A stretch of 33,145 nt of DNA from a virus (lineage: Duplodnaviria > Heunggongvirae > Uroviricota > Caudoviricetes), in IMG/VR virus record IMGVR_UViG_2879742664_000006. One strand, 5' to 3'. A model generated the notes under the pieces. The model was not told where the DNA came from, did not search any database, and was given only the letters and a program-made list of their open reading frames with translations. Shown here piece by piece: positions 2,937 to 33,145 of the stretch (position 1 is its first letter; the number at the start of each line of letters is the position of its first letter). Made by a program: the position numbers and the translations under genes.

Positions 2937-2944
2937 CCACTTCA

Positions 2945-3550: not shown

Positions 3551-3554
3551 ACCA

Positions 3555-4972: not shown

Positions 4973-4998
4973 GCGAAGCAGCAGACAAGCGAAGCGCG

Positions 4999-6041
4999 TC
5001 AGGATGTGGGCTGGATGTCTAACAGTGCGTAAGGGTTAAAGCGGATCACCTCTTCGCCAAGCCAGTCATTGATGTGCTTCATGGCCTCCATGACGGGCAT
5101 CAGCTCGTTAATTGCGTAAACCCGCGCGGCCTTCTCCACATCACCAAACGCACTTTTTTCACCCGGCATCGCCCCCATCAGTTGCGGCGGAACGCGGTGC
5201 GCAGCCAGCACATCATCACGGGATGCCGCCTTAACATTCATGAACTCATCCTTTGCGGTGATCTGCTGGAACGGCAAAATTTGCACCCCCTCTTTGCCCC
5301 CGTTGGGCGCATGAATGAGCACGTTTTTAAACGCACCACCACCACGCGCACCCTGTAGCGTTTCTTTCAGGGAGTCCATGCTTTCGCGGTTTACCTGCGC
5401 GGCACCGATGTAGATGATGCACCCGGCGTGGGATCCGTTGTCGTAATACAGTTTTCTGAACATGTCCGCCGAATGAGACAGGCTGGCCGAGAGTAATGCG
5501 CCGAGATATTCCGGCATGCCGTAGATTTCCTGGTTAATGTCAGGATTCATCAGGTGACACACTTTGCCTGGGCGAAACTGAAACGCATCCTTGCCATCCT
5601 GCACATACCTCCATGATTCAAGATCGCTTCCGCGTCGCATGTATTTCGCCAGGGCGTGCCGTAATTTAAGCGGTTCGCCGAGCATATTGCTTCGAAGCTC
5701 AAGGAATGCGTTACCGAACACAAACCAGTCCAGCGCCAGCGCCAGCGCCGAGAAATCCTGCCGGGAAAGCAGCGGGTGCGGGATGTAGCAACCGAGCAAT
5801 ACATTGCGCTTAAAATAAAGCGCAGACTGATGCCAGGACGTTTGCCGGGCAGCTCTTGCCAGACCGTACCAGTCCACCGGGGTTTCATACCACCGCCCGT
5901 TATCAGCACAGTACATATTGTCCAGCAGGTCAGGCGATAAGGACCATCAAATGTGAATGCACTGAGCGATGATTCTTTCCTGAGCGCATCAGCGAGATCA
6001 ATGCGTGAACTCATGCGCACTTTTTTATTTTTTCTGCTCAT
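4999..6041 (-). pseudogene. Q: P2 gpQ-like portal protein, interrupted by a 1-bp frameshift near 5917-5946 as sequenced
   Basis: N-terminus MSRKNKKVRMSSRIDLADALRKESSLSAFTFDGP in one frame (track ORF 5550..6041), remainder MYCADNGRWYETPVDWYGL...RFNPYALLDIQPTS in another (4999..5916). Combined length 1043 nt is one short of a multiple of 3. Start overlaps the terminase stop (ATGA). Confidence 0.8.
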
Positions 6042-8783: not shown

Positions 8784-8806
8784 TTAGACAAAGGAGCAAA
8801 TTTTTT

Positions 8807-9858
8807 ATGAATCTGGTGATGTCAGATATTACCCGCAACAAGCTGGGTTGCTATATGGCGCAGCAGGTGTCGCTTAATAATATCCCGGTATCTGCACTGG
8901 TGTCGCGATTTACCGTGGAACCCGCGGTGCAGCAGCGTTTTGAAAACGCCTCAAAGGAAAGTACCGAATTTACGAAAAAAATAACGTGATCGGCGTGACC
9001 GACCAGAAAGGCGAAAAAATCCTCCTGGATACCACAGGACCGATTGCGCGCACGAATACCAGTTATGACGGCACAAAACGCCGTAACCCGAATAACGTGG
9101 TTGATCTGAAAAACCGCAAATATCAGTGTGAACAGGTGAACTACGACACGTTTATTTCGTATCCGCAGCTTGATGCCTGGTCGGCACACCCTGATTTTCA
9201 GTCCCGCATCAGCGCACAGATTGCCCGACAGGTGGCGCTTGACCGCATCATGATCGGTTTCAACGGCACGTCTCACGCGGATGAGTCCAACTTCAGCACC
9301 AACAAGCTGCTTCAGGACGTTAACGTGGGCTGGCTGGAGCACATCAGAACCGACGCCAGCGAACGCGTTATGAATGACGTGACGCTGACCTCCCGCAACA
9401 TGGACAACACCGTGGCGCACGCGGGTAAGTATGCGAACGCTGATGCACTGGTACAGGACGCGCGTTCATCCCTGCTAGATGAATGGCACAAGGAAGCTGA
9501 CGACCTCGTGGTGATTATGGGGCGCAACCTGTTTAACTCGCTGCGTCTGCCCGTGCTGAACAGCATCAGCGGCCAGAATCCCAATGCGGAATTACTCGCC
9601 GGGCAGCTCATCCTGTCATCGCGCACCATTGGCGGGCTGGGCGTGTTCCTTGCGCCGTTCTTCCCGGATGCAACGATGCTGATCACCTCGTTCAACAACC
9701 TGTCGATTTACTGGCAGAAAGGTTCAATGCGTCGCCTGATGAAAGACGAGCCGGAATACAACCGCATCGCCACCTACCAGTCCATCAATGACGCTTATGT
9801 CGTTGAAGACTATGGCAAGTGCGCGATGGTTACTGGCCTGAAGTTCGCCGACAGCTAA
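8807..9858 (+). pseudogene. N: P2 gpN-like major capsid protein, frameshifted in an A-run at about 8975-8986 as sequenced
   Basis: Track ORFs 8807..8989 (ends ...ESTEFTKKIT*) and 8986..9858 (...VIGVTDQKGEKILLDTTGPIA...) are both capsid-like and adjacent frames; adding one base in acgaaaaaaataacg gives continuous ...TEFTKKINVIGVTDQ.... Confidence 0.85.
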
Positions 9859-9903
9859 TCAACTCACGGCGGGCATCATGCCCGCCTGTAACGGAGAGCA
9901 AAA

Positions 9904-10650
9904 ATGATTACTCCTGCACAACAACACTGGCAGAACGTGATGGCACAGCGCGCAGGCCGGGCGAATGAAGGCGTGGACCACGCCGCGCGTACCGCGCATG
10001 AAGAGGTGCTGTATCGTCTGCGTCTGGCACAGGCCCGGCTTAAGGGCGTACAGGCCAGAAGCGCGAAAGCCGCCATCAAAAAAGAGTTGTTGCCGGATTT
10101 TTCCGGCTGGATTGAGGGAACGCTGGAGGCTGACGGCGGGCAGCAGGATGAAGTGATTGCCACGCTGATGGTGTGGGCGATTGACTGTGGCGATCTTCCG
10201 CTTGCGCTGCGTATCGGCGCGTATGTAGTCCGTCACAACCTCATCATGCCGGATAACTTTGGCCGTACTGCTGCCACGGTACTGACCGAAGAAATCTGTA
10301 ATCCGGTACTGACGCAGGCCGGGACGGATGCCGACGCGGATTTGTCCGCCTTTATCGAACCACTGGACACCCTCCGGGAGATTGTCACCGACCAGGACAT
10401 GCCGGACGAAGTGCGCGCCAAATTATGCAAAGCGTGCGCCTTTGCCCGCCGTGGCCTGAGTGATGCGGACAGCATGGCCCTGTCACTGAAGCTGCTGCGC
10501 GAAGCAATGCACCTGAACCCGAACGCAGGTGTGAAACGCGAGATTGCAACCCTTTCCCGCGCCCTGAAAAAAGCCGATTCCGCAGCCGAACCAGAAGACG
10601 CCAGCGCACAGCAGGCGCAGGACGAAAGCAGCAAAAAGCAGCAAAAGTAA
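9904..10650 (+). CDS. M: P2 gpM-like terminase small (endonuclease) subunit
   Basis: 248-aa ORF following the capsid gene, as in P2. Confidence 0.9.
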   Translation: MITPAQQHWQNVMAQRAGRANEGVDHAARTAHEEVLYRLRLAQARLKGVQARSAKAAIKKELLPDFSGWIEGTLEADGGQQDEVIATLMVWAIDCGDLPLALRIGAYVVRHNLIMPDNFGRTAATVLTEEICNPVLTQAGTDADADLSAFIEPLDTLREIVTDQDMPDEVRAKLCKACAFARRGLSDADSMALSLKLLREAMHLNPNAGVKREIATLSRALKKADSAAEPEDASAQQAQDESSKKQQK

Positions 10651-10817
10651 AAAGACAACGCGGAAGCCTGCAACACGAAAAACCACCGCGACGCAGAAGG
10701 CGAAGCGCGGTTAACGACTGACCCCGTCAGCGGGCGGCGTGCGCGGTGTTCCAGTTTGACTCCGTGACCGTTTACACCGCGCACCCACCGCCCGATTTTT
10801 TTTCAGGAGTGAACCCC

Positions 10818-11512: not shown

Positions 11513-11514
11513 CA

Positions 11515-14789: not shown

Positions 14790-14792
14790 ATC

Positions 14793-15689
14793 ATGCCTGC
14801 CGTTGACCTTTCACAGTTACCGGAACCCGCCATCATCGCGGAGCCTGACTTTGAGGCAATTCTGGCTGACACAAAGGCCATGATGATTGCGTCCTATCCC
14901 GCCGAACAGCGTGAAGCCGTTTCCGCCGCGCTGGAGCTGGAATCGGAACCCCTTAACGTTATCGCTCAAACCATGTCGTTTCGTGAAATGCTGTTACGCC
15001 AGCGGGTCAATGAGGGTGCACGCGCCTGCATGCTAAGCCACAGCGCCGGGACAGACCTGGACAACCTCGCGGGCAATATGAACACAAAGCGCCTGGTTAT
15101 CACTCCGGCAACGGATACCACCGATGCAGTGATGGAAAGTGACACCTCGCTGAGACTACGGGCGCAACGGGCATATGACGGTCTGAGTGTTGCTGGCCCG
15201 TCAGGTGCATACGAGTATTTTGCACGCAGCGCCAGCGGTCTGGTACGCGATGCGCGGGCCATCAGCCCGTCTCCGGCCAACGTGACGGTTTCCATCCTGT
15301 CCACTGAGGGCGACGGCACAGCAACGGAGGCGTTGCTTAATACCGTTCGCGCCGTTCTGAATGCAGAGGATACCCGCCCGGTGGCCGACCGCCTGACCGT
15401 ACAGAGTGCCAGAATCGTGACATGGCGGCTGAATGCAAAACTGTACTTTTACCCCGGCCCGGAATCCGAACCTATTCTGGCCGCGGCTGAATCGTCGTTC
15501 AGGAAGTGGCTGGCTGAGCAGGGGCTTATCGGTCAGGACGTGGCGTTGTCCGCCATTGCTGCCGCACTGCATGTGCACGGTGTGCAACGCGTGGAGATAA
15601 TCGAACCCACACAGAATATGGCCATCAGCGACATACAGGCGGCGCGCTGTGCGTCATTCACCATCAGCGAAGGTGGACGCAATGAGTAA
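14793..15689 (+). CDS. J: P2 gpJ-like baseplate assembly protein
   Basis: 298-aa ORF in the V-W-J-I order. Confidence 0.9.
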   Translation: MPAVDLSQLPEPAIIAEPDFEAILADTKAMMIASYPAEQREAVSAALELESEPLNVIAQTMSFREMLLRQRVNEGARACMLSHSAGTDLDNLAGNMNTKRLVITPATDTTDAVMESDTSLRLRAQRAYDGLSVAGPSGAYEYFARSASGLVRDARAISPSPANVTVSILSTEGDGTATEALLNTVRAVLNAEDTRPVADRLTVQSARIVTWRLNAKLYFYPGPESEPILAAAESSFRKWLAEQGLIGQDVALSAIAAALHVHGVQRVEIIEPTQNMAISDIQAARCASFTISEGGRNE

Positions 15690-16212
15690 TTCGTTGTTAC
15701 CACCATCAGCCAGCAATTTCATGCGTTGTGCCGAAGCCGTCGGAACACGCATTACAGACATTCCGGTAGACCTCAACACGCTGTGGTCGCCGGACACCTG
15801 CCCGGTGCATCTGCTGCCTTATCTCGCCTGGGCGTTTTCCGTTGACCGCTGGGATCGCAACTGGCCGGAAGAGACAAAGCGACAGGTTATTCGTGATGCA
15901 TGGCTGATACACCGACACAAAGGGACCATCAGCGCACTGCGCCGGGCCATTGAGCCGCTGGGATACCTCATTCGCGTGTCTGAGTGGTGGGAGTTCGGCG
16001 GAGAACCGGGAACATTTACCGTTGAAGTCGGCACGCTGGACAGTGGCGTGACGGAGGAAATGTATCTGGAAATGGAGCGGTTGATTGCTGATGCCCGCCC
16101 GGTCAGCCGCCACATGACAGGGCTGAATATCATTCAGGAAATTCCGGGGGATATTTTCGCAGCGGCGGCAACTTATGACGGTGAAGTTATTACCATTTAT
16201 CCAGGCGATTAA
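15682..16212 (+). CDS. I: P2 gpI-like baseplate/tail protein
   Basis: MSNSLLPPSASNFMRCAEAVGTRITDIPVDL...; start ATG 15682 overlaps the J stop. Confidence 0.85.
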   Translation: MSNSLLPPSASNFMRCAEAVGTRITDIPVDLNTLWSPDTCPVHLLPYLAWAFSVDRWDRNWPEETKRQVIRDAWLIHRHKGTISALRRAIEPLGYLIRVSEWWEFGGEPGTFTVEVGTLDSGVTEEMYLEMERLIADARPVSRHMTGLNIIQEIPGDIFAAAATYDGEVITIYPGD

Positions 16213-18200: not shown

Positions 18201-18202
18201 CG

Positions 18203-18736
18203 ATGATGCACTTAAAAAACATTACTGCTGGCAACCCTAAAACAAAAGAGCAATACCAGCTAACAAAGCAATTTAACATCAAATGGCTTTATTCAGATGA
18301 TGGGAAAAACTGGTATGAGGAACAAAAGAATTTCCAGCCAGACACTTTGAAAATGGTCTATTACCATAACGGCGTTATTATTTGTATTGAAAAGGATGTT
18401 TCAGCAATTAATCCGGAAGGCGCAAGCGTCGTTGAATTACCTGATATTACAGCAAATCGCCGGGCTGATATTTCGGGGAAATGGTTGTTCAAAGATGGCG
18501 TAGTGATAAAGCGAACTTATACCGAGGAAGAGCAGAGGCAACAAGCGGAAAATGAAAAGCAAAGCCTGTTGCAACTTGTCAGGGATAAAACCCAGCTATG
18601 GGACTCACAGCTACGGCTGGGCATCATTTCCGACGAGAATAAACAAAAATTAACCGAGTGGATGCTCTATGCGCAGAAAGTCGAATCTACAGACACCTCC
18701 AGCCTGCCAGTAACGTTTCCCGAACAACCAGAATGA
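18203..18736 (+). CDS. Tail fibre assembly chaperone (Tfa; P2 gpG / Mu U-like)
   Basis: 177-aa [40 protein letters not shown]...; directly after the fibre gene; paralogous to the minus-strand copy at 18765-19293. Confidence 0.85.
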   Translation: MMHLKNITAGNPKTKEQYQLTKQFNIKWLYSDDGKNWYEEQKNFQPDTLKMVYYHNGVIICIEKDVSAINPEGASVVELPDITANRRADISGKWLFKDGVVIKRTYTEEEQRQQAENEKQSLLQLVRDKTQLWDSQLRLGIISDENKQKLTEWMLYAQKVESTDTSSLPVTFPEQPE

Positions 18737-18739
18737 GAG

Positions 18740-18766
18740 AAGGCCCGATATTGGGCCTTAATTTTT
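18740..18766. terminator. Bidirectional terminator hairpin between the two convergent chaperone genes
   Basis: aaggccc-gatatt-gggcctt perfect hairpin followed by aattttt. Confidence 0.5.
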
Positions 18767-19293
18767 ACTCAGGCTTTTGTGGCCATTCGGGATTTGCTGT
18801 ATCCACACGGCTGACCAGAACGCTGTAGCGTTCCCATGACTCCAGTCGTGTGCGTTCCTCATCCATCGCCATATTCAGCCTGACAGCGCGTTCCAGTGGC
18901 TGAATAACGCTTTCAGCTTCAGAAAGCAACGCGACCTTTTGTGATTCGGCCTGTTGTTGCTGTTCGTCTGCTGTATAAATCCGCTTAACCACAGTTCCGT
19001 CCTTAAACATCCACTTCCCTGAATCATCGGCACGACGATTGGCTGTTATATCTGGAATCTCAACGACACTAAAGCCTTCGGGATTAAGCGTTGGGGCATC
19101 TTTGGTTATGGCAACAATAATATTATTTTCGTCGTATACAATCTTTATGGTGTCGTCCTGAAAGTTATTTACTTCCTCATACCAGTTTTTACCGTCTTCG
19201 GACCATAACCAGATAACATCAAAATTCTTTGTTAGCTGATATTGTTCTTTTGTTTTTGGATTTCCGGACTTAATATTTTTTAATATGCTGCAT
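18765..19293 (-). pseudogene. Alternate tail fibre assembly chaperone (Tfa', Mu U'-like), frameshifted at codons 5-6 as sequenced
   Basis: ATG at 19293 gives MQHIKKY* then stop; the body ([37 protein letters not shown]...) is in the +1 frame; removing one A from the A6 run (plus-strand T6 at 19276-19281) gives [17 protein letters not shown]..., colinear with Tfa. Confidence 0.7.
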
Positions 19294-19296
19294 AAT

Positions 19297-20157
19297 TTAC
19301 ACCTGTGCGACGTTATACCATGTGCCATTGATGTATTTTTGTATTGGTCTGAAGATGGCTTCATCATCGCCATCTACTTCACCAATGATTCTTAATCCGG
19401 TAATTGCGTGTCCGGCTTTTTCATAACGACCACCACGCGCCATCAATTGAACAACACGCGTACCCAGGCGAACATCTTTTACATAGCGTGAATCAAAATT
19501 CCCCCAGTTGCTGGGCTGTATCTGACCGTTAACAGAAAATATTACCGAGTTATCTGTATTTCGCTGGCTATAGAAATGCCATCCTGCCTCATTGCCTAAC
19601 TCTGCAACTACTGGACGGGTTGAAGCACCCCATAAATTAAACGTTGCATTCTTTGTGGAGTTGTTGGAGCTGGATAGCGTGAATTTTTTACCATCCCCGG
19701 CCTGAATATTTTTAAAAGCAATAGCCACTCCATTCTGAAAGCGGAATACACGCTGACTATTAGCATAAACATCCAGAATACCGTCTCCATTCTGTTTAAA
19801 TCCGGTGTCATTATCACCAAGAACAATAGAGCTACCACCTAACGCATTCGTCGAACCAACTCCAAGACTGCCATTAATGACAGCATTAACAAGAATATTT
19901 AGTGCATCCCATTTCAGCGTCATCAGGTCTTTTGTTGTGGTGCTCTGGCGGCTTCTCCATTTGAAATATTCATTGCCGTTGTCGCCTGTTTCAAACCACA
20001 TGTATGAATCAGTGTCACCATCGGCATCATTTTTAAATCCAATCTTCGCCCAGTCAGTATTTCGAATCCAGGCAAGGATTGAGTCATTTTCAAAAGTAAG
20101 CCCACCGGACAAGGTATCGCCATTTTTTTGCACGGCGTTACCAGCCCTGTTTACCGT
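19297..20157 (-). CDS. Alternate tail fibre C-terminal segment (Sv'), no start of its own; expressed only after inversion
   Basis: Minus-strand frame open from the right gix site (...[23 protein letters not shown]...) to a stop at 19297; C-terminus ...[17 protein letters not shown] parallels the current H C-terminus ...RPIQYCINGTWYNAGSI. Confidence 0.75.
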
Positions 20158-20183
20158 TTCCTGTAAACCGAGGTTTTAAATAA
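20158..20183. other. Right gix/cix-like crossover site of the invertible segment
   Basis: ttcctgtaaaccgaggttttaaataa closely resembles the Mu gix consensus as I remember it; inverted relative to 17479-17504; 54 bp upstream of the invertase gene. Confidence 0.75.
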
Positions 20184-20237
20184 TGGCCGTTTCTGGCCTG
20201 CATGGCATGATTTGCGCTTTTGGACGGGAGATTCAGT

Positions 20238-20837
20238 GTGCTGATTGGCTATGTAAGGGTATCAACAAATGACCAGAATACAGACCTGCAACGAAACGCT
20301 CTTGTTTGTGCAGGATGTGAACAAATATTTGAAGATAAATTAAGCGGGACAAAGACAGACCGACCGGGATTAAAACGCGCTTTAAAGCGCCTTCAAAAAG
20401 GTGACACGCTGGTTGTCTGGAAACTGGATCGCCTCGGGCGAAGCATGAAACATCTGATTTCTCTCGTCGGGGAACTACGGGAGCGAGGGATTAATTTTCG
20501 CAGTCTGACCGACAGCATAGACACATCTTCTCCAATGGGGCGTTTTTTCTTCCACGTGATGGGTGCCCTGGCTGAAATGGAACGTGAATTAATTGTTGAA
20601 CGTACACTGGCCGGGCTGGCGGCAGCGCGCGCAAGGGGGCGCACAGGCGGACGTCGACCGAAGCTGACAAAAGAACAGCATGAGCAAATAGCAAGGCTAA
20701 TCAAAAACGGGCACGACAGAAAACAACTGGCAATAATTTACGGCATTGGCACATCGACGATTTATCGTTATCACCCTGTAGGCGATATACAGACTGAAGA
20801 AACAACCGGGCAGACTCAGGAAAATGAAAACCGCTAA
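20238..20837 (+). CDS. Serine DNA invertase of the Pin/Gin/Cin/Hin family
   Basis: MLIGYVRVSTNDQNTDLQRNALVCAGCEQIFEDKLSGTKTDRPGLKRALKRL... (catalytic Ser in VRVSTNDQ), C-terminal HTH; GTG start inferred at 20238 inside track ORF 20220..20837. Confidence 0.9.
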   Translation: MLIGYVRVSTNDQNTDLQRNALVCAGCEQIFEDKLSGTKTDRPGLKRALKRLQKGDTLVVWKLDRLGRSMKHLISLVGELRERGINFRSLTDSIDTSSPMGRFFFHVMGALAEMERELIVERTLAGLAAARARGRTGGRRPKLTKEQHEQIARLIKNGHDRKQLAIIYGIGTSTIYRYHPVGDIQTEETTGQTQENENR

Positions 20838-21366: not shown

Positions 21367-24174
21367 TCAATCTTTATCGTAAAAACAGCCACGCCCGGCA
21401 CGGGCGCGCCGTTCCATTTCTGCCCTGACCATTTCACCGACCAGTTTCGCCAGTTCGCGGGGATTCTGCGTAACAACGTTATGCAGATGAACATGAATTT
21501 CACCACCAAATCCGAAGGCAACAGGCTCCCGGTTACGGGAAGTTACAGGAACTGATGCCACTGGAGATCGTATAGCCTCCGCCACCGGGCGGGAGCTGGC
21601 CGCAACAACAGGGACCAGCGCCGGAGGCAGCGGAGCCGGAACCACGGGTGTGATATTAATTGCGGGGGCAGGCTTACTGACCTGCGCAATCTTCCGCTCC
21701 TGCCACTCCCCACGAACAGCAAGTGCTCGGGGCAGGTTTTTAAAGACAATATCGCCGGGGCCAATGCGTTTTTTCGTCTCCTCAACCAGCTTACCTGTGT
21801 TATCAGCAATTTTGCTGAGTCTGCGCAGCGTACCGGTATTGCTGTCTGTGAGCGGTTTATTGTCTTTGGGGTTATCACCTCCGGTGCCATTGCCATTTTC
21901 CACAGGCTTCGGCGGATTGATTTTCGCCAGATCCCCCTGAAGCAAGGCAACCTTGTCCTGAAGAATGGCCGCACGCTGTGCGTCTTCGATTTTCTTGCGC
22001 GCCCTTTCCGCTTCATCCGGAAGCACACCAAGCTTTTCAAGTATCCACGCCAGCGTATCCAGCAACATTTTTGCAGGTGTCAGAACAAGTTGTAACGCAC
22101 CGCCAAGAACGTTACCGAATATCTCGCCAGCACTGGTACATTTATCCAGAGTTTCCTTGCTGGACTCCATCGGTGACAGCAGCGATTTAAACCAGTTAAA
22201 CACCTGGCTGATCCCACTCCCGATTGCGTCAAAAACAGGACCAAACCGTTCAAAGGTTTCGCGCAACGGGGTCAGCCTTTCCATAATCCCGCTGAACACC
22301 CCGGCAAAAAATGCCCTGATGGGATCCCAGTATTTCCAGATAAGAACGGCAGCTCCGGCAAGCGCAGCCACGATAAGACCAACCGGACTGAACAACGCCC
22401 CGATAGCGCCTCCCAGTAAAGAAACGGAACCCGTCACCATTCCCCATAGTGCTGGCAGAACCCTGACAGCATTCATTGATCCGGTCAGGAGGGAAAAACC
22501 AAGACGCAGTTTTGCCAGCGGGCCAGCAAGCACACCAATAGCCAGCGACAACGAGCCAACCGTTGCAGTCATTGCCAGCAATGCACCGCCTGCAATCAGT
22601 AGCTGGCGCGTCAGTGCGGGATGGGCCTGCGCCAGCGCCGTCACCTTTGATACCACACGCGTGAGCCACTGCGTGACAGAACGCAGCGGACCGTCAATCA
22701 GATCTGCAATGCGGATGCGCAACCCTTCCCATGCACTGCTGAGTGATTTCAGATCGCCGTCAAGGTTGTTGGCCATAACCTTTGCCGTGCGTTCAGCCTC
22801 ACCGCGCGCGCCTTCAAGTTCTTTTCTCAGTTTGGGTAAGGAGCCGTCACCTGCCGCATCAACGAGGGCCATAAATGATGTGAAAGCCTCTTCTCCGGCA
22901 ATGTCCTTAAAGAACGATACCCGGTCAACTTCCCCGTATTTGCGGGTAGCTTTATAAAGGTCAGCCAGCACATCCTCCATCGGGCGCATTTTGCCCCCGG
23001 CATCCGAGACAGACACGCCAAGCTCTTTCAGCGCCTCTGCTGCCGCCTTTGGCGGTGATGCCAGACGAGCCAGGCTGGCACGCATTGCCGTACCAGCATC
23101 ACTCCCCCTGATACCCATATTCGCCAGCACGCCCGCCATCGCTGCGGCCTGCTCCAGAGATATTCCCAGCTTACCCGCCACCGGACCTGCATATTTCATG
23201 GTTTCACCCAGTGCGCGAAGGTCAGTGTTGGTACGGGTAAACGCTGCGGTGAGTGTGTCGCCGACCCGGTCCATCTGGTCAGCAGAAAGACCGAACTGCG
23301 TCAGAATATTTGAGCCAATATCCGCCGTCTCACCGAGGTCCATACCGCCAGCCGTTGCCATGCTCAGTACGCCAGGGAGCGCAGCCTGAATGGCCTGTGG
23401 TGTAAAGCCAGCCATTGCAAGAAATGCCTGTCCACTGGCGGCATCGCCTGCGGTGAACTGCGTTTCAGAGCCAAGTTTTAACGCCTGCTCACGCAGCGCC
23501 TTAAACTGCGGGCTGTTCTGGTCGATTCGCGTCAGTGCCTGAACGCGGGACATCTCTTTGCCGAACCCGATCGCAGGCTGCAAAAAACGCCCGGCAGCAT
23601 AGCCGCCCGCCGCTGCCGCACCAATTGCCAGCGCACCACCTGTTTTCAGTTTTCCCGCTGTTTCCTGCGCGCGCGAATACCGCTCACGCGCCCGTGTTAC
23701 ACGCGCAAGCGCCTGCCGTTCGCGTTCAAGCTGGTTGTTGTACTGTTCGGTGCGTCTGATGGCCTGCTGGATGGTGTTATCGCTGCCTGTCAGGGAAATG
23801 CCGTGGCGTTTCAGCTCTCCGCCAAGCTCCCGCATTTTCTGAATTTCCCGTGTGCGCGATTCATTCAGGCGTTCAAGCCGGGTGCTTAACTGCTGCATCA
23901 GCTTTTGTTGTTTTTCGCTGAGCACTGTACCCGTGCGTTGTAACTGATTAAGGGCGTTAAGCTGGCGTCGTGCTTTCACGATGCCAGCATCCGCTTTACT
24001 GACAGCGTCACGGGCGCGCTCAAATGATCGCGCCTGACGCTCGAGATTTTTGATCGCCCCCTGCGTTCGCTGGATGGAGTCACCAAACTGCCCCATCAGG
24101 CGGCGGGCGTTTTCGGCAGGCCGGGTCAGCCTGTCAACGGCGCTGAAAGCGACCCGGATATCAAGAGTCTTCAT
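21367..24174 (-). CDS. T: Tail tape measure protein (P2 gpT-like)
   Basis: ~935-aa ORF, coiled-coil N-terminal third, Gly/Ala-rich hydrophobic middle; start placed at the Met of MKTLDIRV (RBS ggga); track ORF extends to 24210. Confidence 0.9.
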   Translation of the reverse strand: MKTLDIRVAFSAVDRLTRPAENARRLMGQFGDSIQRTQGAIKNLERQARSFERARDAVSKADAGIVKARRQLNALNQLQRTGTVLSEKQQKLMQQLSTRLERLNESRTREIQKMRELGGELKRHGISLTGSDNTIQQAIRRTEQYNNQLERERQALARVTRARERYSRAQETAGKLKTGGALAIGAAAAGGYAAGRFLQPAIGFGKEMSRVQALTRIDQNSPQFKALREQALKLGSETQFTAGDAASGQAFLAMAGFTPQAIQAALPGVLSMATAGGMDLGETADIGSNILTQFGLSADQMDRVGDTLTAAFTRTNTDLRALGETMKYAGPVAGKLGISLEQAAAMAGVLANMGIRGSDAGTAMRASLARLASPPKAAAEALKELGVSVSDAGGKMRPMEDVLADLYKATRKYGEVDRVSFFKDIAGEEAFTSFMALVDAAGDGSLPKLRKELEGARGEAERTAKVMANNLDGDLKSLSSAWEGLRIRIADLIDGPLRSVTQWLTRVVSKVTALAQAHPALTRQLLIAGGALLAMTATVGSLSLAIGVLAGPLAKLRLGFSLLTGSMNAVRVLPALWGMVTGSVSLLGGAIGALFSPVGLIVAALAGAAVLIWKYWDPIRAFFAGVFSGIMERLTPLRETFERFGPVFDAIGSGISQVFNWFKSLLSPMESSKETLDKCTSAGEIFGNVLGGALQLVLTPAKMLLDTLAWILEKLGVLPDEAERARKKIEDAQRAAILQDKVALLQGDLAKINPPKPVENGNGTGGDNPKDNKPLTDSNTGTLRRLSKIADNTGKLVEETKKRIGPGDIVFKNLPRALAVRGEWQERKIAQVSKPAPAINITPVVPAPLPPALVPVVAASSRPVAEAIRSPVASVPVTSRNREPVAFGFGGEIHVHLHNVVTQNPRELAKLVGEMVRAEMERRARAGRGCFYDKD

Positions 24175-24211
24175 TGTCTGCATTCCCGCTACGAAGTGCC
24201 GCCCGCTCACG

Positions 24212-24699
24212 TCAGCTAACCACTTCGCCGGGCGTCATCATGAAGATTTCGGCGGGCGACCAGTTAAAAATGGCGGCAATATCCGCCACCAGATCTTCGA
24301 TGTGCTCAAAGCACACCAGGGTGATTACGCTGCCGTCTCCTGCACGCTCTTCGCGCCAGAGTCTGGCTCGCTCATAAAATTTACAGCCACAGCGCACAAC
24401 TGAATAAAATCGCGTGACGACATTTTTTTAATCATCACTTCATCCAGTCGTGGCGAGGTCACGCGAGGCAACAGCGTGAACATGGTATCCGCTTTCAGAT
24501 TCAGCACATCAGACAGCGACAGACCACGCAGGGATCCAGCCTGCTCAATAGCCCCGGTGATCTCCACATACGTGATTTTTTCGCCACCACGCTCAATTGG
24601 TCGGGTCAGTTTTACGCCACGTTCGACAGCCATATCCTCAACTGCCGTCACATTATCCGCCACGGTGTTATTCCGGGTTTCAGTATCGATGTCTTTCAT
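24212..24699 (-). CDS. gpE+E'-like frameshift product (programmed -1 frameshift, putative)
   Basis: A -1 frame (...KFYERARLWREERAGDGSVITL...PGEVVS*) is open from a slippery-like heptamer A_AAT_TTT (plus-strand 24375-24381) in E through to a stop at 24212, 2 nt before the T start, the conserved chaperone arrangement. Confidence 0.55.
24325..24699 (-). CDS. E: Tail assembly chaperone gpE-like
   Basis: 124-aa ORF with strong RBS aaggaga 7 nt before ATG 24699; lies between tail tube and tape measure genes. Confidence 0.75.
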   Translation of the reverse strand: MKDIDTETRNNTVADNVTAVEDMAVERGVKLTRPIERGGEKITYVEITGAIEQAGSLRGLSLSDVLNLKADTMFTLLPRVTSPRLDEVMIKKMSSRDFIQLCAVAVNFMSEPDSGAKSVQETAA

Positions 24700-24754
24700 C
24701 TGTTGTCTCCTTTTCAGTCAGAGGCGACGCACTGCGCCGCCAGCATATTACTTA

Positions 24755-25265
24755 TCAGCCAAGCCCAAGCGCGGAACGGATGCGATCGGGCACAATGTCC
24801 TTGCCGTCCTTCCGGTAAATGAAGTTCAGCAGGTCAATCTCCCACAACGGGCGATCGTTAACACTCAGCTTGTAGTAGGTGTTTTAATGGCGTAAGTGTG
24901 TGATGTGGCTTCGCCCTGTTTGGCTTCCCCCATATCAATTTCCGTCACACGTCCGCGCATTTCGACTTCATACAGGTCGCTTTCTGCATCGGTGTAGTAT
25001 TCACCCGCAAAACGCAGCAGCGTGCCGTCAATCGTGCCGCCATACTTAAGGAACAGCTCACGAACTGCGCCCCCATGACAAAGCTCGCATCAAGCGCGGA
25101 GTCGTCCAGACCGAGATCAATACTTACCGCACCCATCATGCCACCACCCCGGTAGCTGTCGGTTTTGCGCGTCAGCTTAGGCAGAGTGACGGACGTCACA
25201 TTACCCACTTCGTTTTCACCATCCACAAACAGCGTAAAAAAGCGAAGATGTTTTGGCACAGCCAT
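24755..25265 (-). pseudogene. FII: P2 gpFII-like tail tube protein with two 1-bp frameshifts as sequenced
   Basis: N-terminal part in track ORF 24945..25265 (MAVPKHLRFFTLFVDGENEVGNVTSVTLPKLTRKTDSYRGGG...); tube-like sequence continues in two other frames (...GGAVRELFLKYGGTIDGTLLRFAGEYY..., then ...YYKLSVNDRPLWEIDLLNFIYRKDGKDIVPDRIRSALGLG*). Frame changes at a C5 run (25070-25074) and a T4 run (24883-24886). Confidence 0.8.
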
Positions 25266-26449
25266 CAGGCACCTCCCAGCACCGCAAATGCGGGTTCAAA
25301 GTATTCATCAGTAAACGTCTGGTAAAGCTCCATGTCTTCCAGTGGCGGAACGGGCGTATATTTGTAGCGAATACGCACACGTCCCTGACGTAAATCCGTG
25401 GTGCTGTTATCCACCACGTCATACCAGCACTCCGCGCCAATCAGTTTCCCGGCAGTCACCAGTGAATCCAGTTTTGCCCTGATGGCACTGATAACATCCT
25501 TCACATTCGCAGGCGTCAGTGGACTGTCGATGGTTTCAAACTGCGCTTCCGCAATTGAATCAGCCAGCACCTGTGCGGTTCGGGTATACACCTCAAAGAT
25601 GTAGGCGTTCGTTTCCGGTGTGCGGTTACCCCAGAAGCGGAACCCGTTGCGACGAATAATGGTCGTGATTTCTTTGTTGTTGAGGCTGTTGGCATCGCTG
25701 TCTTCGGCCTGCAACGACCAGAACACATGCCTCGACATCCCCAGCACATTTTTAACCGGAACGTTGGACAGCGATTTGTGCCATCCCTGTTCATGGTCAA
25801 TGTACGCACGAAGGCCGCACGCATAGGCAGGCGCGGGGAACGTTTCGTTTTTGCCATTTTTCGGGTTGTAGGCGATGAAGTCCGGCCATAAGAGCATCAC
25901 CTCACGTTCGTTGAATTTCTGGCGGTAGGTAATTGCCTCGGCCATCGTGTTACAGCCATGACATGAGGCATACACAAACGCGCGCAGTTTATCTGCAATC
26001 ACGCACAGGGATTTTGTTACCGCCTCCGTGTCCAGCTCCGGCGCGGCCAGAATACGCGGACGGTATCCGATGCTTTCATCCTGCTCTGCAACAAGCAGCG
26101 CATACATCCCCGTATAGCTGCCGTCATCCTCAGAACCACCGATAACCAGTTGATCCTGCGTCTTTCCGTCTTCTTCTTTGTGTTCAGCCACGCGAACGAC
26201 GATCACCTTTGTGCTCACCTGGTCTGCGATGGCCTTAAGCGCACGATAAAGCGTCCCCGTTGTCCCGCATTTTCCCAGCACGTCATTGACGCGGGTCAGC
26301 AGTGTGGGCTTGTTCAGCGGGAACAGCTTCGCGTCCGCATCATCCGCCGTTGCCACGATACCGATAACGCTGGAATCAACATCGTTAATCGCTGTTACCA
26401 GGTCGGTATTCTCCGTAACACGGGCACCATGAAAACGAGTTTCACTCAT
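25265..26449 (-). CDS. FI: P2 gpFI-like tail sheath protein
   Basis: 394-aa intact ORF; stop overlaps the tail tube start. Confidence 0.9.
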   Translation of the reverse strand: MSETRFHGARVTENTDLVTAINDVDSSVIGIVATADDADAKLFPLNKPTLLTRVNDVLGKCGTTGTLYRALKAIADQVSTKVIVVRVAEHKEEDGKTQDQLVIGGSEDDGSYTGMYALLVAEQDESIGYRPRILAAPELDTEAVTKSLCVIADKLRAFVYASCHGCNTMAEAITYRQKFNEREVMLLWPDFIAYNPKNGKNETFPAPAYACGLRAYIDHEQGWHKSLSNVPVKNVLGMSRHVFWSLQAEDSDANSLNNKEITTIIRRNGFRFWGNRTPETNAYIFEVYTRTAQVLADSIAEAQFETIDSPLTPANVKDVISAIRAKLDSLVTAGKLIGAECWYDVVDNSTTDLRQGRVRIRYKYTPVPPLEDMELYQTFTDEYFEPAFAVLGGA

Positions 26450-26606
26450 AGCTTCAGCCCCTTGTATCCGTTAAATGATTCAGCAACAATCATCACCCAC
26501 CACGCGCGTAATCTCACCCCTGCGCCGTTCTCCCGCCACGGCGACAACAAAAAGCAGTAACCCCCTCCGCACGCACATGCGACCATGCCGCACAGGGAGG
26601 GAGCAG

Positions 26607-27716
26607 ATGACCGACACCACCATGCAATTGCTCAGTCAGGGCACGGCCCCCGTGAAAATGCCGGATTTTGATATTCTCTCGGAGGGTAAAACGCTGTCAG
26701 GCGTGGCGGAGCGCCTGATGAGCCTGTAACTGACCGACAACCGGGGATTTGAGGCGGACCAGCTCACCATCACGCTGGATGATGCGGATGGTCAGTTGCA
26801 GCTACCGCCACGGGGCGCGCGTCTGACGGTTCTCATTGGCTGGAAAGGGGAACCGCTGACAGAAAAAGGCACTTACATTGTTGATGAAATCGCTCACGAA
26901 GGACCGCCGGACAGGCTGACTGTTTCAGCCAGAAGCGCAGATTTTCGGGATGAATTTAACGTTAAACGTGAGGTGTCCTGGCATGATGTGACCGTTGAGC
27001 GTGTGGTATCCGCCATCACTCATCGGTACGGTCTGAAACCGCAAATCAGCGAAATGCTGATGGATATCGAAATCGACCACGCCGACCAGACCGAAGAAAG
27101 CGACATGTCCTTTCTTACGCGCATGGCGGAAATGCTGGGAGCAATCGCCACGGTAAAAAGCGGCAATCTGTTATTCATCATGCCAGGTGGTGGCGTGAAC
27201 GCACAGGGGCAGCCGTTGCCCTCGTTCGCCATTACACGCAGCAGCGGCGATCGCCATCAGTTCCGCATTGCTGACCGCGAGGCGTATACGGGGGTACGCG
27301 CCTACTGGCTTGATCTTAATTACGGGAAAAAGAAAAAAGTCAGCGTGAAACGCCGCAAACCGCCAAAACCCAAAAAGGAGAAAAGCAGCAGTCGGGAAGG
27401 CGACTATATGGAAGGTGCGGAAGGCAACGTGTTTGTGTTACGCAAGACTTATCAGAACGAGCAGGCAGCAAGACGCGCAGCGGCGGCAAAGTGGCAGCAG
27501 CTACAACGCGGAGCCGCATCATTCTCCATCACGCTGGCGCGTGGTCGTGCAGAACTCTATCCCGAAATGCATGGCACAGTGACAGGCTTTAAAAGCGAGA
27601 TTGATTATCAGGACTGGACTATTGCAAAAGCCGAGCACACCATTGATAACAGCGGCTTTACCACGCAGCTTGAACTTGAAGCAAAAATCCCGGAATGGAT
27701 AGCAGAAACAGAATAA
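26607..27716 (+). pseudogene. D: P2 gpD-like tail protein with an in-frame TAA stop at codon 41 (26727-26729)
   Basis: ATG 26607 with RBS agggaggg; track ORFs 26475..26729 and 26796..27716 are in the same frame, separated only by TAA; D-like sequence reads continuously across it (...GVAERLMSL*LTDNRGFEADQLTITLDDADGQLQLPPRGARLTVLIGWKGEPL...). Confidence 0.8.
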
Positions 27717-27964
27717 ATCTCTTAAAAATATTATTTTTGAGATGTGCTTCTACACTGACAGTAAGAACAAAAGATAATGTATCAGCCCACTAGATGTCAG
27801 AGGTTGGGGCATCAACCAGATGCTAACAATAATACGGATGTTTTTCCCACATGACAGAGGAAGTCAAGTATAATCTTCACAGTCCATCCCGTCCAAGGGA
27901 ATATGACTCAATAGTAAAAGTTCCAGTTTAGTTAGTAGACCCACACTTTATAGAAGAGTAATTC

Positions 27965-30900
27965 ATGATTGGACAATTTTTAAGTGCAACAGAGATTTTA
28001 GCAAAGAACTATGTTCGTAATAAAATGGTTAAAAATCCATTTTATTCGAATTTAAAATGGAATTTTATTGAAAAAAACATCATAAGATTAACATCCTCAC
28101 CGGTTAAATCAGTACTTTGCATATCAGCTTTTTCATTTGTACTACTTTATGTTGGATATTTAAACGAATTATTTATAAAAAATAATCTTTTACATTATTT
28201 CCCGTTTAGGCATTCATTAACCGAATGGCAAACAACCATTTTAAGTGGCCAATTGACAATTATTGGTATTGTATACCCCCTTGTTATAGGTTTAGTAAGT
28301 GTCTTATTCCAAAAAAAGGCAGATAGAAAAATAGCCCAAACTGCTTATCAGCGTTACTCAGGATTCATGCTTGCTGGACTCAGCGGGCTTTTCTTATCAG
28401 GATTTATACTTCTCAGTGTACTAATTAAAACTGTCTTTGGAAGTTATCTTTATGGTATAGCTTGTCTAATCAGCATATTATGGCTTTTGATAAACATAGT
28501 TCTTTCTATTTGGTTCTTTATCGTGAGTCTTGAAATTCTTGATGATGTAAAACGGCAAATAATTATAAAGCGATACATTGCCTTCGAAATAGTAATGCCC
28601 CATATTTGTAACAAAATATCAGCCAAGCTTAGGTTATACCCTATCTATCAAAAACATAACTATTCAAATTTAGAAATCACGCAAGCCGATTACAAAGGAG
28701 AATACATATCTGTGGCTAGCAGTTATTCTAAGGAAGATGAGTTAAGTTTATATCACCGTCCTTTTCAACTTACTCTTAATCTTATTAATTACCAACTAAA
28801 AAAGAAGAATCATTTTGCGTCATTTGTCATTGGTGATAATCGTACAAAAGAAACAGAATCCACGGGTAAGATACTTTTTAGCGTTAAAAATATCAAACCA
28901 GACAGCTTATTAATAAAAATACTTAAGCAATGTTTTTATAGGGCTCCGATTAAAGGAGGAGATTTTTCCGTAAGTCTTACAATGCAGGCTATAACAGCAG
29001 ATACGTATATGTATCTGCGGGATTCTGATCTCATTAGTTTTGACAATGCTATCTCTGCATTAATTAATAACTTTAATAATCTCTGCGATTTGTATTTTTT
29101 TCAAGATGATAATACCAACAATAACTTCTTACTGATCACTACAGAATTATTTGAACGGAGTTTTCAATATGAGTTTTCAGATGAAGTTTATAAAATATCA
29201 AATAATTCCATGGATAAAATTAATCTTTCTGAAAGATTTTTTGAATTATGTCTTTGGAGCGGAGTGCGTATTATCAATAATAGAAAACATCTTATCAGCA
29301 ATGAACTTTGTATCTATATGGGAATTACTCGTTCACAATGGTCAATATTAACAGAATGGTTCCGAAACAACCAATCACTCTTAAATGCCTCGCTTCGTTC
29401 ACGTTATAATCGTATATTAAGAACCTATATCACTGTTTGGGAGCAATATCAAGAAAGCATAAACTTTCGTTTCTGCAATACAGAGAATTCAGATTTATTT
29501 GAATTATTTTGCAAAACGCAACTACAAGAACTTCCATCGATGATTATTGATGCAACACAGACTCGCGATCCTTCTACTATTGATACAGCCGTCGATCTTA
29601 TTAACCGATGGCAGCACTCAATGAATATTGACAGCCATTCGGTAGAAAAATACAGTTACAAAGGCCAGCTTTTTAACCCGGGTTTTTTCATATCCAAAAA
29701 ACTAAACTTCAATTCAGACAGAGAGTGGTTCAATATTGCCATCATAAATGCGTTGACTGACATGCGTATATGCACATGTCTTTATCTGACATCAAGAATC
29801 AATACTTCTGACAAACTAATGACACATTACATTAAACTTATTTTAGAGGGTAAACTTATTGACCAAACCGGTGGATATGAAACTCCCACTGAAGAAATTG
29901 ATAATGCAAGCCAACTAATCAAGATATTAATTAGAATCTGCCTGTGGACATGGTCTGAAAATATGGAGCACAATGGGTGGATGAATAGTTTAGCAAGGCG
30001 TTTACGTGACTATGATAAAACAGACATGGTGATGGGCAGAGTTTACAGTAATGTTTTTGACTGTGGATTTATTGATATGGAACAATCATGGGTTCAGCTA
30101 TTATTAATTTTTTCTAACAAGAACGATAGCGTATCAAAAGAAATAAAAGAAGCAATAGAAAACAACTATATAACATATCGTGAGAAGCAACGACTCATTG
30201 GAGTATTATCAAAAATTTGTAACTCCATCGAATACACTAAAATCAAGCTGACTTTAACATTGGACGATCTCCAAACAAAAAAAGAAAACTTAAGAAAGTT
30301 GCTTCAAGAGCATATTAACATGCTAAAGAAAGATCTTGATATGAGACTTCAGGATGCTGCCATAGATGTACATCGACTAGATAGCACTGCACGTAAAACA
30401 TCAGAACATCTTCGTAAACGCATCAAGAAAACGCTCCCTCTTTCACTTTTCAAATCTATTGATTTTAAGCAGGCTAGCGATTGTTTCACAAAACATAAGA
30501 TATCTATTAAGATAGATAAAGAACCGTATGCCGAAGGAATAGAATCCATCCCTTATATCAATGAAGGTGATATTCAAGCAGACTTAATTCTCAAGGACAT
30601 CCAGAGAATAATACTTTCAAATTTATTTAGCACTGGCTGTTCGCAACATACCGTAATAGAAGATTTCAATATGTTGATTGATCACATAAAATCATCTGCT
30701 GACTTGGCTGGCAAACTGGTTCTTGTGATGAGTAAAGAGATCTTTCAGCAATATAATCGTATGCTTTTCGATAATCCCAACCTCAGAGAACTAATGAGAA
30801 AAAATGATGATGGCTCTATGAACATAACTACTGAATCCGGTACCCGTAAGGTTTACTTCTTACCATTTGTTAATCAACCATTTTCTCTTGTGGTAAAGGA

Positions 30901-31084
30901 TAACTACTTCACTAAATTAATTATTAGAGAATATGATAATAATAAGTTAGTAAATGTCACTTCAGAGAATATCAAAAGTGACTCAGATAAATTCAAGCTA
31001 ACTCTTAACTATGAGTTGAATATAGTATTTGAAGGAAACGCTGATTTAAAAATAGCTCACTCGCAAAGAGTGACATCAGAATAA
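27965..31084 (+). CDS. Large membrane-anchored protein of unknown function (1039 aa), AT-rich cargo gene
   Basis: Single uninterrupted ORF, visibly AT-rich (about 17 G+C in the first 60 nt) against GC-rich phage genes; N-terminal hydrophobic helices (residues ~50-190), then ~850 aa with no recognisable motif; possible -10 box TATAAT at 27869-27874. Confidence 0.8.
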   Translation: MIGQFLSATEILAKNYVRNKMVKNPFYSNLKWNFIEKNIIRLTSSPVKSVLCISAFSFVLLYVGYLNELFIKNNLLHYFPFRHSLTEWQTTILSGQLTIIGIVYPLVIGLVSVLFQKKADRKIAQTAYQRYSGFMLAGLSGLFLSGFILLSVLIKTVFGSYLYGIACLISILWLLINIVLSIWFFIVSLEILDDVKRQIIIKRYIAFEIVMPHICNKISAKLRLYPIYQKHNYSNLEITQADYKGEYISVASSYSKEDELSLYHRPFQLTLNLINYQLKKKNHFASFVIGDNRTKETESTGKILFSVKNIKPDSLLIKILKQCFYRAPIKGGDFSVSLTMQAITADTYMYLRDSDLISFDNAISALINNFNNLCDLYFFQDDNTNNNFLLITTELFERSFQYEFSDEVYKISNNSMDKINLSERFFELCLWSGVRIINNRKHLISNELCIYMGITRSQWSILTEWFRNNQSLLNASLRSRYNRILRTYITVWEQYQESINFRFCNTENSDLFELFCKTQLQELPSMIIDATQTRDPSTIDTAVDLINRWQHSMNIDSHSVEKYSYKGQLFNPGFFISKKLNFNSDREWFNIAIINALTDMRICTCLYLTSRINTSDKLMTHYIKLILEGKLIDQTGGYETPTEEIDNASQLIKILIRICLWTWSENMEHNGWMNSLARRLRDYDKTDMVMGRVYSNVFDCGFIDMEQSWVQLLLIFSNKNDSVSKEIKEAIENNYITYREKQRLIGVLSKICNSIEYTKIKLTLTLDDLQTKKENLRKLLQEHINMLKKDLDMRLQDAAIDVHRLDSTARKTSEHLRKRIKKTLPLSLFKSIDFKQASDCFTKHKISIKIDKEPYAEGIESIPYINEGDIQADLILKDIQRIILSNLFSTGCSQHTVIEDFNMLIDHIKSSADLAGKLVLVMSKEIFQQYNRMLFDNPNLRELMRKNDDGSMNITTESGTRKVYFLPFVNQPFSLVVKDNYFTKLIIREYDNNKLVNVTSENIKSDSDKFKLTLNYELNIVFEGNADLKIAHSQRVTSE

Positions 31085-31219
31085 TATCTTTGACGGCGCT
31101 CCTTAGAGTGCCGTTCGTTTATTAACTAATGCTAAAAATCATTATATAGAGAAAGTCATGTTTAAATCTTAGAGAATACAACCTAGAATAGTGTAAGCAC
31201 TACAATAAGAGAGGTCGCT

Positions 31220-31415
31220 ATGTTCCGTTGTCCGCTTTGTGGCGCATCTGCCCGTATCCGCACCAGTCGTCCGGAAAATGATTCAAACACCGTGAGACAA
31301 AAGTATTATCAGTGTAACAATCTAGAATGCGGCGTATGTTTCTCAACACTGGAAGCCTTCCACAAATTCACTTCAAAGCACGCCTCCCCCATTCACTCAT
31401 CAGAGGGCATCCCGT
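31220..31415 (+). pseudogene. ogr: ogr-like zinc-finger late-gene activator, 3' end split off by IS2 (remaining codons at 32746-32823)
   Basis: MFRCPLCGASARIRTSRPENDSNTVRQKYYQCNNLECGVCF... (CxxC...CxxxxC); the IS2 terminal repeat begins at 31416 inside the frame, which resumes after the IS2 left end as ...PWHELPTSHRGNNQMSLPLPQN*. Confidence 0.8.
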
Positions 31416-31426
31416 TGGATTTGCCC

Positions 31427-32331
31427 CTATATTTCCAGACATCTGTTATCACTTAACCCATTACAAGCCCGCTGCCGCAGATATTCCCGTGGCGAGCGAT
31501 AACCCAGCGCACTATGCGGATGCCATTCGTTATAATGCTCGAACGCCTCTGCAAGGTTCTTTGCTGCCGTTAACCCGTCTGGTTTGGGCATGATACTGAT
31601 GTAGTCACGCTTTATCGTTTTCACGAAGCTCTCTGCTATTCCGTTACTCTCCGGACTCCGCACCGCCGTGTTCTTCGGTTCAAGTCCCAACATCCGGGCG
31701 AACTGGCGTGTTTCATTAGCCCGGTAGCATGAACCATTATCCGTCAGCCACTCCACTGGAGACGACGGAAGATCGTTGCCGAAGCGGCGTTCCACCGCTC
31801 CCAGCATGACGTCCTGTACTGTTTCACTGTTGAAGCCGCCGGTAGTCACCGCCCAGTGCAGTGCCTCACGATCACAGCAGTCCAGCGCGAACGTGACACG
31901 CAGTCTCTCTCCGTTATCACAGCAGAACTCGAACCCGTCAGAGCACCATCGCTGATTGCTTTCTTTCACGGCCACTCTGCCTGTATGTGCCCGTTTCGAT
32001 GGCGGTACAGCAGGTTTTCGTCAAGCAACAGCGCATTCTGGCGCATGATCCGGTAAACACGTTTGGCATTGATCGCAGGCATACCATCAAGTTCTGCCTG
32101 TCTGCGAAGCAGCGCCCATACCCGACGATAACCATACGTGGGCAGCTCTCCGATAACATGGTGTATACGGAGAAGCACATCCGTATCATCAGTGTGACGA
32201 CTGCGGCGGCCATCCATCCAGTCATCGGTTCGTCTGAGAATGACGTGCAACTGCGCACGCGACACCCGGAGACAACGGCTGACTAAGCTTACTCCCCATC
32301 CCCGGGCAATAAGGGCGCGTGCGCTATCCAC
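31427..32331 (-). pseudogene. insD: IS2 transposase OrfB (InsD) with an internal 1-bp frameshift near 32019-32025
   Basis: Split into track ORFs 31966..32331 ([12 protein letters not shown]...[28 protein letters not shown]) and 31427..31975 ([17 protein letters not shown]...); the shifted frame reads [24 protein letters not shown], so one base is missing around cttga(a)cgaaaacc. Confidence 0.8.
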
Positions 32332-32654
32332 TTTTTTGCCCGTCCATATTCAACGGCTTCTTTGAGGAGTTCATTTTCCATCGTTTTCTTGCCGAGCAGG
32401 CGCTGGAGTTCTTTAATCTGCTTCATGGCGGCAGCAAGTTCAGAGGCAGGAACAACCTGTTCTCCGGCGGCCACAGCAGTAAGACTTCCTTCCTGGTATT
32501 GCTTACGCCAGAGAAATAACTGGCTGGCTGCTACACCATGTTGCCGGGCAACGAGGGAGACCGTCATCCCCGGTTCAAAGCTCTGCTGAACAATTGCGAT
32601 CTTTTCCTGTGTGGTACGCCGTCTGCGTTTCTCCGGCCCTAAGACATCAATCAT
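32289..32654 (-). CDS. insC: IS2 transposase OrfA (InsC)
   Basis: [56 protein letters not shown]...; track ORF starts 15 codons upstream at 32699. Confidence 0.85.
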
Positions 32655-33004
32655 CTGTACTCCAATGACTAGTCTAAAAACTAGTATTAAGACTATCACT
32701 TATTTAAGTGATACTGGTTGTCTGGAGATTCAGGGGGCCAGTCTACCGTGGCATGAACTGCCAACTTCACACAGAGGAAACAATCAGATGAGTTTGCCCT
32801 TACCTCAGAATTAACGAGCAGAATTGCCGGAGTAACAAAAAAGCGATAGATTACGCGCGGGTGCCTTTCGGCTGATGGTCGGAGGGAATACCTGAAGGCC
32901 AGATGTGGAAAGGCCCCGGAAAACATTTTTGTTTAACCGAGGCCCTAACCGTCTACCCTAAGCAAGTGATAGGTTAGCGCCTCCCCGAAAAAGGAGCAAG
33001 CGCT

Positions 33005-33145
33005 ATGTCGCAAAAATCGCTTACGGCCATCACGTTCTGCGTGACGGCAATCCTCATCATCTGGATGCTGCACGGTTCGCTGTGCGAAATACGGATGAGC
33101 TTCTGGGGAGCGGAGTTTGCGGCGTTCTTACAGTGTAAGCAGTAA
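33005..33145 (+). CDS. Hok/Gef/PndA-family type I toxin (small membrane peptide), putative
   Basis: 46-aa ORF MSQKSLTAITFCVTAILIIWMLHGSLCEIRMSFWGAEFAAFLQCKQ: one TM helix then SLCEIR and E(F)AAF motifs as in Hok/PndA (from memory); RBS aaggag 8 nt upstream. Too short for the ORF track. Confidence 0.5.
   Translation: MSQKSLTAITFCVTAILIIWMLHGSLCEIRMSFWGAEFAAFLQCKQ

Follow-up and report, generated by a model that had tools for sequence, protein, structure and literature searches.

Does a stop codon within a phage tail gene reflect an error in the record, a signal that ribosomes bypass, or the loss of the gene? The 33,145-nucleotide (nt) viral sequence IMGVR_UViG_2879742664_000006, called here in its full length the window, raises this question: gene D of the P2-family prophage that it carries has an in-frame ochre codon (TAA) at codon 41. 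A sequence-only reading of the window had left two outcomes, a genuine nonsense mutation or re-initiation downstream that would yield a shortened D. Based on our analysis, it is very likely that the stop is a genuine, inherited nonsense mutation and D an ordinary lineage-fixed pseudogene in a decaying P2-family prophage, not a recoding signal. The first of the two outcomes is thus the one borne out: close relatives carry TCA at this codon, and TAA is found in every Shigella assembly examined.

The D reading frame and its internal stop

The D frame extends from the ATG at 26607 to a terminal TAA at 27714-27716, and consists of 40 sense codons, the internal TAA and a further 328 sense codons. 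Its features are as follows.

26607..27716, + strand: gene D, probable pseudogene of a P2/P88-type baseplate hub (Phage_GPD); 369 codons, broken at codon 41
26595..26603, + strand: native Shine-Dalgarno sequence GGGAGGGAG, 5' of the ATG at 26607; duplex with the 16S 3' end, -11.6 kcal/mol
26607..26729, + strand: 40-residue N-terminal peptide and ochre stop, the sole product expected from D
26727..26729, + strand: ochre codon TAA; changed base 26728, C->A; probable ancestral codon TCA (Ser41); tetranucleotide TAAC
26730..27716, + strand: remainder of D, codons 42-369, untranslated in our reading; contains TTG 26796 (codon 64) and CTG 26916 (codon 104)

The TAA at 26727-26729 is the only internal in-frame stop, and its placement at codon 41 by the sequence-only reading agrees with the coordinates of the open reading frame (ORF). 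When the 1107 nt of D were shuffled by mononucleotide (n=20,000), the frame contained a mean of 16 stops and a minimum of 4, with P(<=1) = 0; D is accordingly a real gene, interrupted by a single internal stop. The background for the Shine-Dalgarno duplex score is -2.9 +/- 2.8 kcal/mol. An exact look-up of the 84-amino acid (aa) ORF at 26475-26729 gave no match. A promoter and terminator scan around D returned generic consensus matches only, with no + strand terminator 3' of D, and supports no claim.

Origin of the stop codon

The closest intact copy of the gene is the 369-codon D of Escherichia coli ETEC4088, which is 99.64% identical to the window over 1110 nt, with four substitutions and no gaps. 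Together with the profile match of the part 3' of the stop (see below), this confirms that the frame is D-like on both sides of the TAA. One of the four differences is at 26728, C in ETEC4088 and A in the window. Codon 41 is TCA in E. coli ETEC4088 and GDSC2BY4G, and in the phages P88 and P88_4B11. More broadly, in an alignment of 62 full-length D proteins, down to ~70% identity, column 41 is S (42), E (12), T (6) or G (2) and never a stop. A 61-nt query centered on the stop hit 1031 complete E. coli genomes but was exact in none of them, the best hits having exactly one mismatch; the TAA allele is missing from this collection because the collection contains no Shigella.

Comparison with relatives thus points to TCA (Ser) as the ancestral codon 41, from which TAA probably arose by a single C->A transversion at 26728, turning Ser41 of the baseplate-hub gene into an ochre stop. 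TCA, one base from TAA, was among the codons proposed from the sequence alone, and all close relatives examined carry it. The D gene of the P88 group (Xuanwuvirus) is the same gene in the same position, and window D is 96% identical in DNA to that of P88 and P88_4B11. P88 can be induced, forms plaques and is a myovirus with a contractile tail (PMC5285337). In the P88 group D is intact with TCA at codon 41, whereas window D is cut there, inside a non-viable prophage.

The allele in Shigella

The window is 100% identical to CP026811.1 over positions 1-15916 and 21965-33145; CP026811.1 is Shigella flexneri serotype 6 strain 64-5500 (PMC9455713). A defective P2-like prophage of E. coli B was rejected as the identity of the window, as there is no exact E. 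coli match, a search of the literature brought up nothing, and the window is identical to S. flexneri 6.

TAA was present in all 24 of the Shigella-derived loci fetched. The carriers include CP000036.1 (Shigella boydii 4 Sb227), CP026731.1 (S. boydii ATCC 8700), CP049281 (S. boydii 600657), CP055124.1 (S. flexneri 6 FDAARGOS_714) and contigs assembled from Sequence Read Archive (SRA) runs (SRR32548190). In a public assembly collection, the exact 40-residue N-terminal product is indexed in 927 blocks (41 with contigs >1 Mb), and the 306-residue D fragment starting at TTG in 749 blocks. The ten places listed for the 40-residue product all adjoin ihfA-pheT. The TAA-bearing loci diverge by up to ~0.3% and have differing later insertions of the insertion sequence (IS) IS1 and deletions, yet all of them occupy the same chromosomal site, which shows the allele to be old and inherited and not a mistake in the record. 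Two marks of vertical inheritance are thus present: an intact allele one step away in a close relative, and one lesion shared at a single locus by diverged members of one host lineage. S. flexneri 6 has been reported as closest to S. boydii, with Sb227 serving as its mapping reference (PMC8767353). The mutation likely arose once, in a P88-like (Xuanwuvirus, P2-family) prophage beside ihfA-pheT, in an ancestor of the Shigella lineage to which S. boydii (Sb227, ATCC 8700, 600657) and S. flexneri 6 belong, and would have been passed on vertically since.

Several lesions of homopolymer length in the window could hint at a noisy assembly, and a sequencing or assembly error with TCA as the true codon was considered. 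However, the identical TAA occurs in independent records (the Sb227 chromosome, other complete chromosomes and SRA-run contigs), and the homopolymer lesions of the tail tube gene also recur in every assembly that keeps that region, making such an error almost inconceivable. The tube gene is as follows.

24755..25265, - strand: tail tube (FII) gene; 1-bp deletions at 24885 and 25074; stop at codon 107 of 170

Every TAA-bearing locus with that region has both tube deletions; the homopolymer changes in the tube are therefore genuine. Accordingly, the view taken from the sequence alone that an artefact was less likely for the D stop is strengthened, the TAA being in every independent Shigella assembly examined, while the possible artefact status that it implied for the tube lesions does not hold.

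Identity of gene D and the weight of its N-terminus

The part of D that lies 3' of the stop matches the Pfam family PF05954 Phage_GPD (59.4 bits, cut-off 30.1), and the intact ETEC4088 allele matches phrog_52, 'tail protein' (E = 1e-164). The D protein is ~48% identical to D of Peduovirus P2. The 1.5 kb around the stop match 1395 E. coli records at 95-99% identity and also 13 phage records, of the P88 group (Xuanwuvirus, Peduoviridae). D is oriented divergently from the sheath-tube-E-T-U operon and is followed, after a cargo gene, by ogr and hok, as in P88. Window D therefore has the family profile and the position beside ogr in a P2-family tail cluster, and lacks the uninterrupted ORF of ~345-390 residues spanning the N-terminal motif. 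On its sequence, window D is best regarded as a pseudogene of the Phage_GPD / P2 gpD baseplate hub family and not as a functional member of it.

How much the loss of the N-terminus would matter can be judged from the hub of the R2 pyocin (chain C of 6u5h, 6u5h_C), the only solved relative found by sequence. It matches D over residues 18-356 (E = 8.6e-41), with D 18-62 aligned to 6u5h_C 2-46; the region of codon 41 therefore belongs to the conserved fold. The R2 hub is part of a tailocin and not of a phage, and this distant match is used only to show that the N-terminus is structural. Among the 62 homologues, residues T43, D44, N45, R46, F48, A50, D51 and D59 are invariant, and the invariant motif TDNRGFEAD lies between codon 41 and the TTG at codon 64. 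An AlphaFold model of intact D has a mean predicted local distance difference test (pLDDT) score of 49 and was used only for the secondary structure of its better-predicted N-domain (pLDDT ~70), where it has strands at 19-25, 37-45 and 52-58. In this model, of low overall confidence, the stop would fall inside the second strand of the N-terminal beta domain.

Other lesions in the prophage

The D stop is accompanied by further damage, called by gene-by-gene comparison of the window with ETEC4088. Besides the tube gene, the affected genes are as follows.

4999..6041, - strand: portal (Q) gene; 10-bp deletion (about 5932) and 6-bp duplication (5744); stop at codon 164 of 348
8807..9858, + strand: major capsid (N) gene; 1-bp deletion at 8978; stop at codon 61 of 350
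9904..10714, + strand: small terminase (M) gene; 10-bp tandem duplication at 10637; C-terminus changed from about codon 245
19284: one tail-fibre assembly gene; 1-bp insertion
24161..24316, - strand: E' (GpE-family) ORF, 51 codons; nonsense change TGG->TGA at codon 35, base 24212
31220..31415, + strand: ogr, the late-gene activator; interrupted by an IS after codon 65 of 86
31416..32745, - strand: IS3-family insertion sequence, 1.33 kb; Pfam HTH_Tnp_1 and rve; not in ETEC4088

Indels other than those of the tube were compared only with ETEC4088 and CP026811.1; among them are a 10-bp deletion and a 10-bp tandem duplication, changes atypical of sequencing errors. The sequence-only reading was correct that the D lesion is a substitution but not that this sets it apart from all other lesions, as the E' stop is a substitution as well. 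The E' ORF is intact (51 aa) in the TAA-bearing S. boydii loci L022 and L029, and its stop is therefore younger than that of D. Replication, Dam-methylase and AAA-ATPase genes are missing from the window, with IS copies in their place. The only piece of an integrase called is a 45-residue remnant just outside the left end of the window in CP026811.1. Because the tube gene has two frameshifts, the tail is defective regardless of D. The D stop is one among numerous inactivating lesions, and the prophage is probably no longer selected to make virions.

The element that cuts ogr is, from its length and terminal sequence, presumably IS2-like, and a 265-bp copy of its end is also found at 1431-1695. 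The left end of the window, 1-4565, has no counterpart in ETEC4088; it contains IS3-family transposase genes (about 56-2936), ParM/StbA-like and StbB-like partition genes (2930-3866) and an Ead/Ea22-like gene (3930-4520). An invertible tail-fibre segment (17475-20187), next to an invertase gene (20238-20837), is reversed relative to ETEC4088, Sb227 and several other Shigella copies.

Restart and read-through

With the stop in place, ribosomes would start at the strong native site, make the 40-residue peptide and terminate, so that the 328 codons that follow would be essentially untranslated and no functional hub protein would be made. We infer that read-through and restart at the TAA are negligible.

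Restart 3' of the stop could in principle give an N-terminally shortened but working D, as 328 codons of open frame remain, annotations call a product of 306 aa (TTG, codon 64) or 266 aa (CTG, codon 104), and the TTG at codon 64 has a weak Shine-Dalgarno-like match of -6.3 kcal/mol (-11.6 at the native site). That TTG, however, is the first canonical in-frame start and lies 67 nt past the stop, while the first ATG is at codon 150. Residues 43-51 and 59, which are invariant, would be missing from the product, as would about three N-domain strands and the segment equivalent to 6u5h_C 2-46. None of the 62 homologues begins 3' of residue 25, so natural downstream starts, which could have undermined the reading of the TAA as a lesion, were not found. 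The fragment has also gathered changes at invariant residues, IS1 insertions and frameshift damage (see below), and the tube, capsid and portal genes are dead, leaving nothing to assemble. A useful shortened D, the second outcome left by the sequence-only reading, is accordingly unsupported, the start at TTG64 being late and weak and invariant residues being lost; we regard it as very improbable.

Read-through of the stop, programmed or by a host ochre suppressor, would instead give full-length D. The base after the stop is C, and TAAC is a weaker termination context in E. coli than TAAT. Yet both release factors recognise UAA, the stop least prone to leak, and ochre suppressors carry a cost and are seldom met in wild isolates. 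No tRNA gene was found within the window, to which the tRNA search was confined. The stop is limited to one Shigella lineage and is in neither the >1000 E. coli prophage copies nor the phage relatives. Every relative outside that lineage has a sense codon at this position, which means that the TAA is no conserved recoding site. Even a full-length D would find no tube, capsid or portal. Taken together, read-through as a source of full-length D is extremely unlikely.

Decay of D after the stop and the question of selection

D continued to decay after the stop arose, and the following changes are found 3' of it.

27018, + strand: G->A, A138T; residue invariant in the 62 homologues; derived in the S. 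flexneri 6 / Sb227 sublineage
27619, + strand: T->C, I338T; column at least 90% conserved; window sublineage

Five TAA-bearing S. boydii loci (L020, L022, L023, L028 and L029) retain Ala138. As TAA-bearing S. boydii loci still have both A138 and I338, the stop preceded those changes. Another TAA-bearing locus (L024) has R46L, at an invariant residue. Within D, the TAA group has in all three non-synonymous changes (A138T, I338T and R46L) and three synonymous ones. In addition, IS1 is inserted in the 3' end of D in two loci (L006 and L021), and D of L009 has an extra 1-bp deletion.

Across all late genes, the window branch has 21 non-synonymous (the stop included) and 15 synonymous derived changes, a ratio of non-synonymous to synonymous rates (dN/dS) of ~0.4. 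The share of random substitutions in the late genes that creates a stop is 3.8%, so that ~1.4 stops are expected among the roughly 37 derived changes; two are seen, consistent with what unconstrained neutral decay predicts.

Some observations weigh against D being a decaying pseudogene. The dN/dS of the window branch equals that of the intact ETEC4088 branch (8 non-synonymous to 6 synonymous changes, likewise ~0.4, these being small, outgroup-polarised counts) and alone shows no relaxed constraint. Many strains still share a 100% identical D fragment; the flanking DNA is equally uniform at this shallow divergence. Trace read-through or restart at the stop is possible, and the host genome outside the window may hold an ochre-suppressor tRNA. 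One could envisage that a restart product (64-369 or 104-369) or the 40-residue N-peptide was retained, for example to interfere with tail assembly of an incoming P2-family phage, or that low-level read-through gives residual D function. Retained function is argued against by the subsequent changes at invariant residues and by the IS1 insertions in D; no observation requires it, and we consider it highly implausible.

The nonsense mutation could also have been positively selected, for example to disarm the prophage, and not fixed neutrally. The TAA is fixed across the whole lineage, and mutations that inactivate prophages can be advantageous. However, loss of D would leave costly steps (excision, replication and lysis) running. 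At least eight other lesions, differing in type, are spread across the element, as is typical of neutral decay, and the number of stops matches the neutral expectation. A clonal, bottlenecked pathogen also fixes mutations without selection, and gene decay is widespread in Shigella (PMC3218036). Selection for the stop is therefore very improbable, and we infer that the mutation was neutral.

Annotation of D and the cargo gene

Even intact D genes are given shortened models in public annotation. In three E. coli strains (ETEC4088, E2863 and O104:H4 FDAARGOS_349), the NCBI Prokaryotic Genome Annotation Pipeline (PGAP), as used for RefSeq, models the intact 369-codon D as a coding sequence of 266 aa that starts at CTG and is named 'contractile injection system protein, VgrG/Pvc8 family'. 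The models are placed as follows.

L001 2017-2817; L032 and L033 1519-2319: 266-aa D models, equivalent to window 26916-27716

The 266-aa model omits 103 good codons, and a spurious antisense partial 'hypothetical protein' pseudogene is added. In 37 of the 40 E. coli genomes listed from the 61-nt query, no feature covers codon 41. The truncated models look like a systematic mis-annotation of the start site.

Between D and ogr lies the cargo ORF (27965-31084), of 1039 residues, with 31-37% GC as compared to 54-58% in the flanking genes. It had no match in Pfam, PADLOC, NCBIfam, PHROGs, PDB sequences or phage genomes; despite this, PGAP labels it 'MFS transporter'. The protein has three long hydrophobic stretches at its N-terminus. 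A distant homologue is encoded on large contigs (120-206 kb), of which at least some are plasmids, where its neighbours include genes for an AAA_15/AAA_21 ATPase, a RES-domain protein, a DUF3800 protein and a PIN protein. We judge the cargo ORF to be the most interesting feature of the window.

Implications

Decayed D genes in P2-family prophages have a precedent in yegZ/ogrK of E. coli K-12, a prophage remnant in which a decayed P2-type D gene lies beside ogr. There, yegZ is a C-terminal fragment left by deletion, whereas window D is full length and point-mutated. Nonsense, frameshift and IS lesions shared by descent are a pattern described for Shigella genomes, including Sb227 (PMC3218036); that study dealt with chromosomal genes relative to a K-12 reference and does not use the word 'prophage' in its main text. 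In the literature, no paper describing this particular D allele was found.

For annotation, those frameshifts and stops of the window that could be compared across assemblies are real, and 'correcting' them would be a mistake; the locus also draws attention to the truncated D gene models. The TAA is usable as a clean, single-origin marker common to S. boydii and S. flexneri 6. Biologically the stop is minor: it adds a further inactivating mutation to a prophage with multiple defects, in a group of pathogens known to accumulate pseudogenes.
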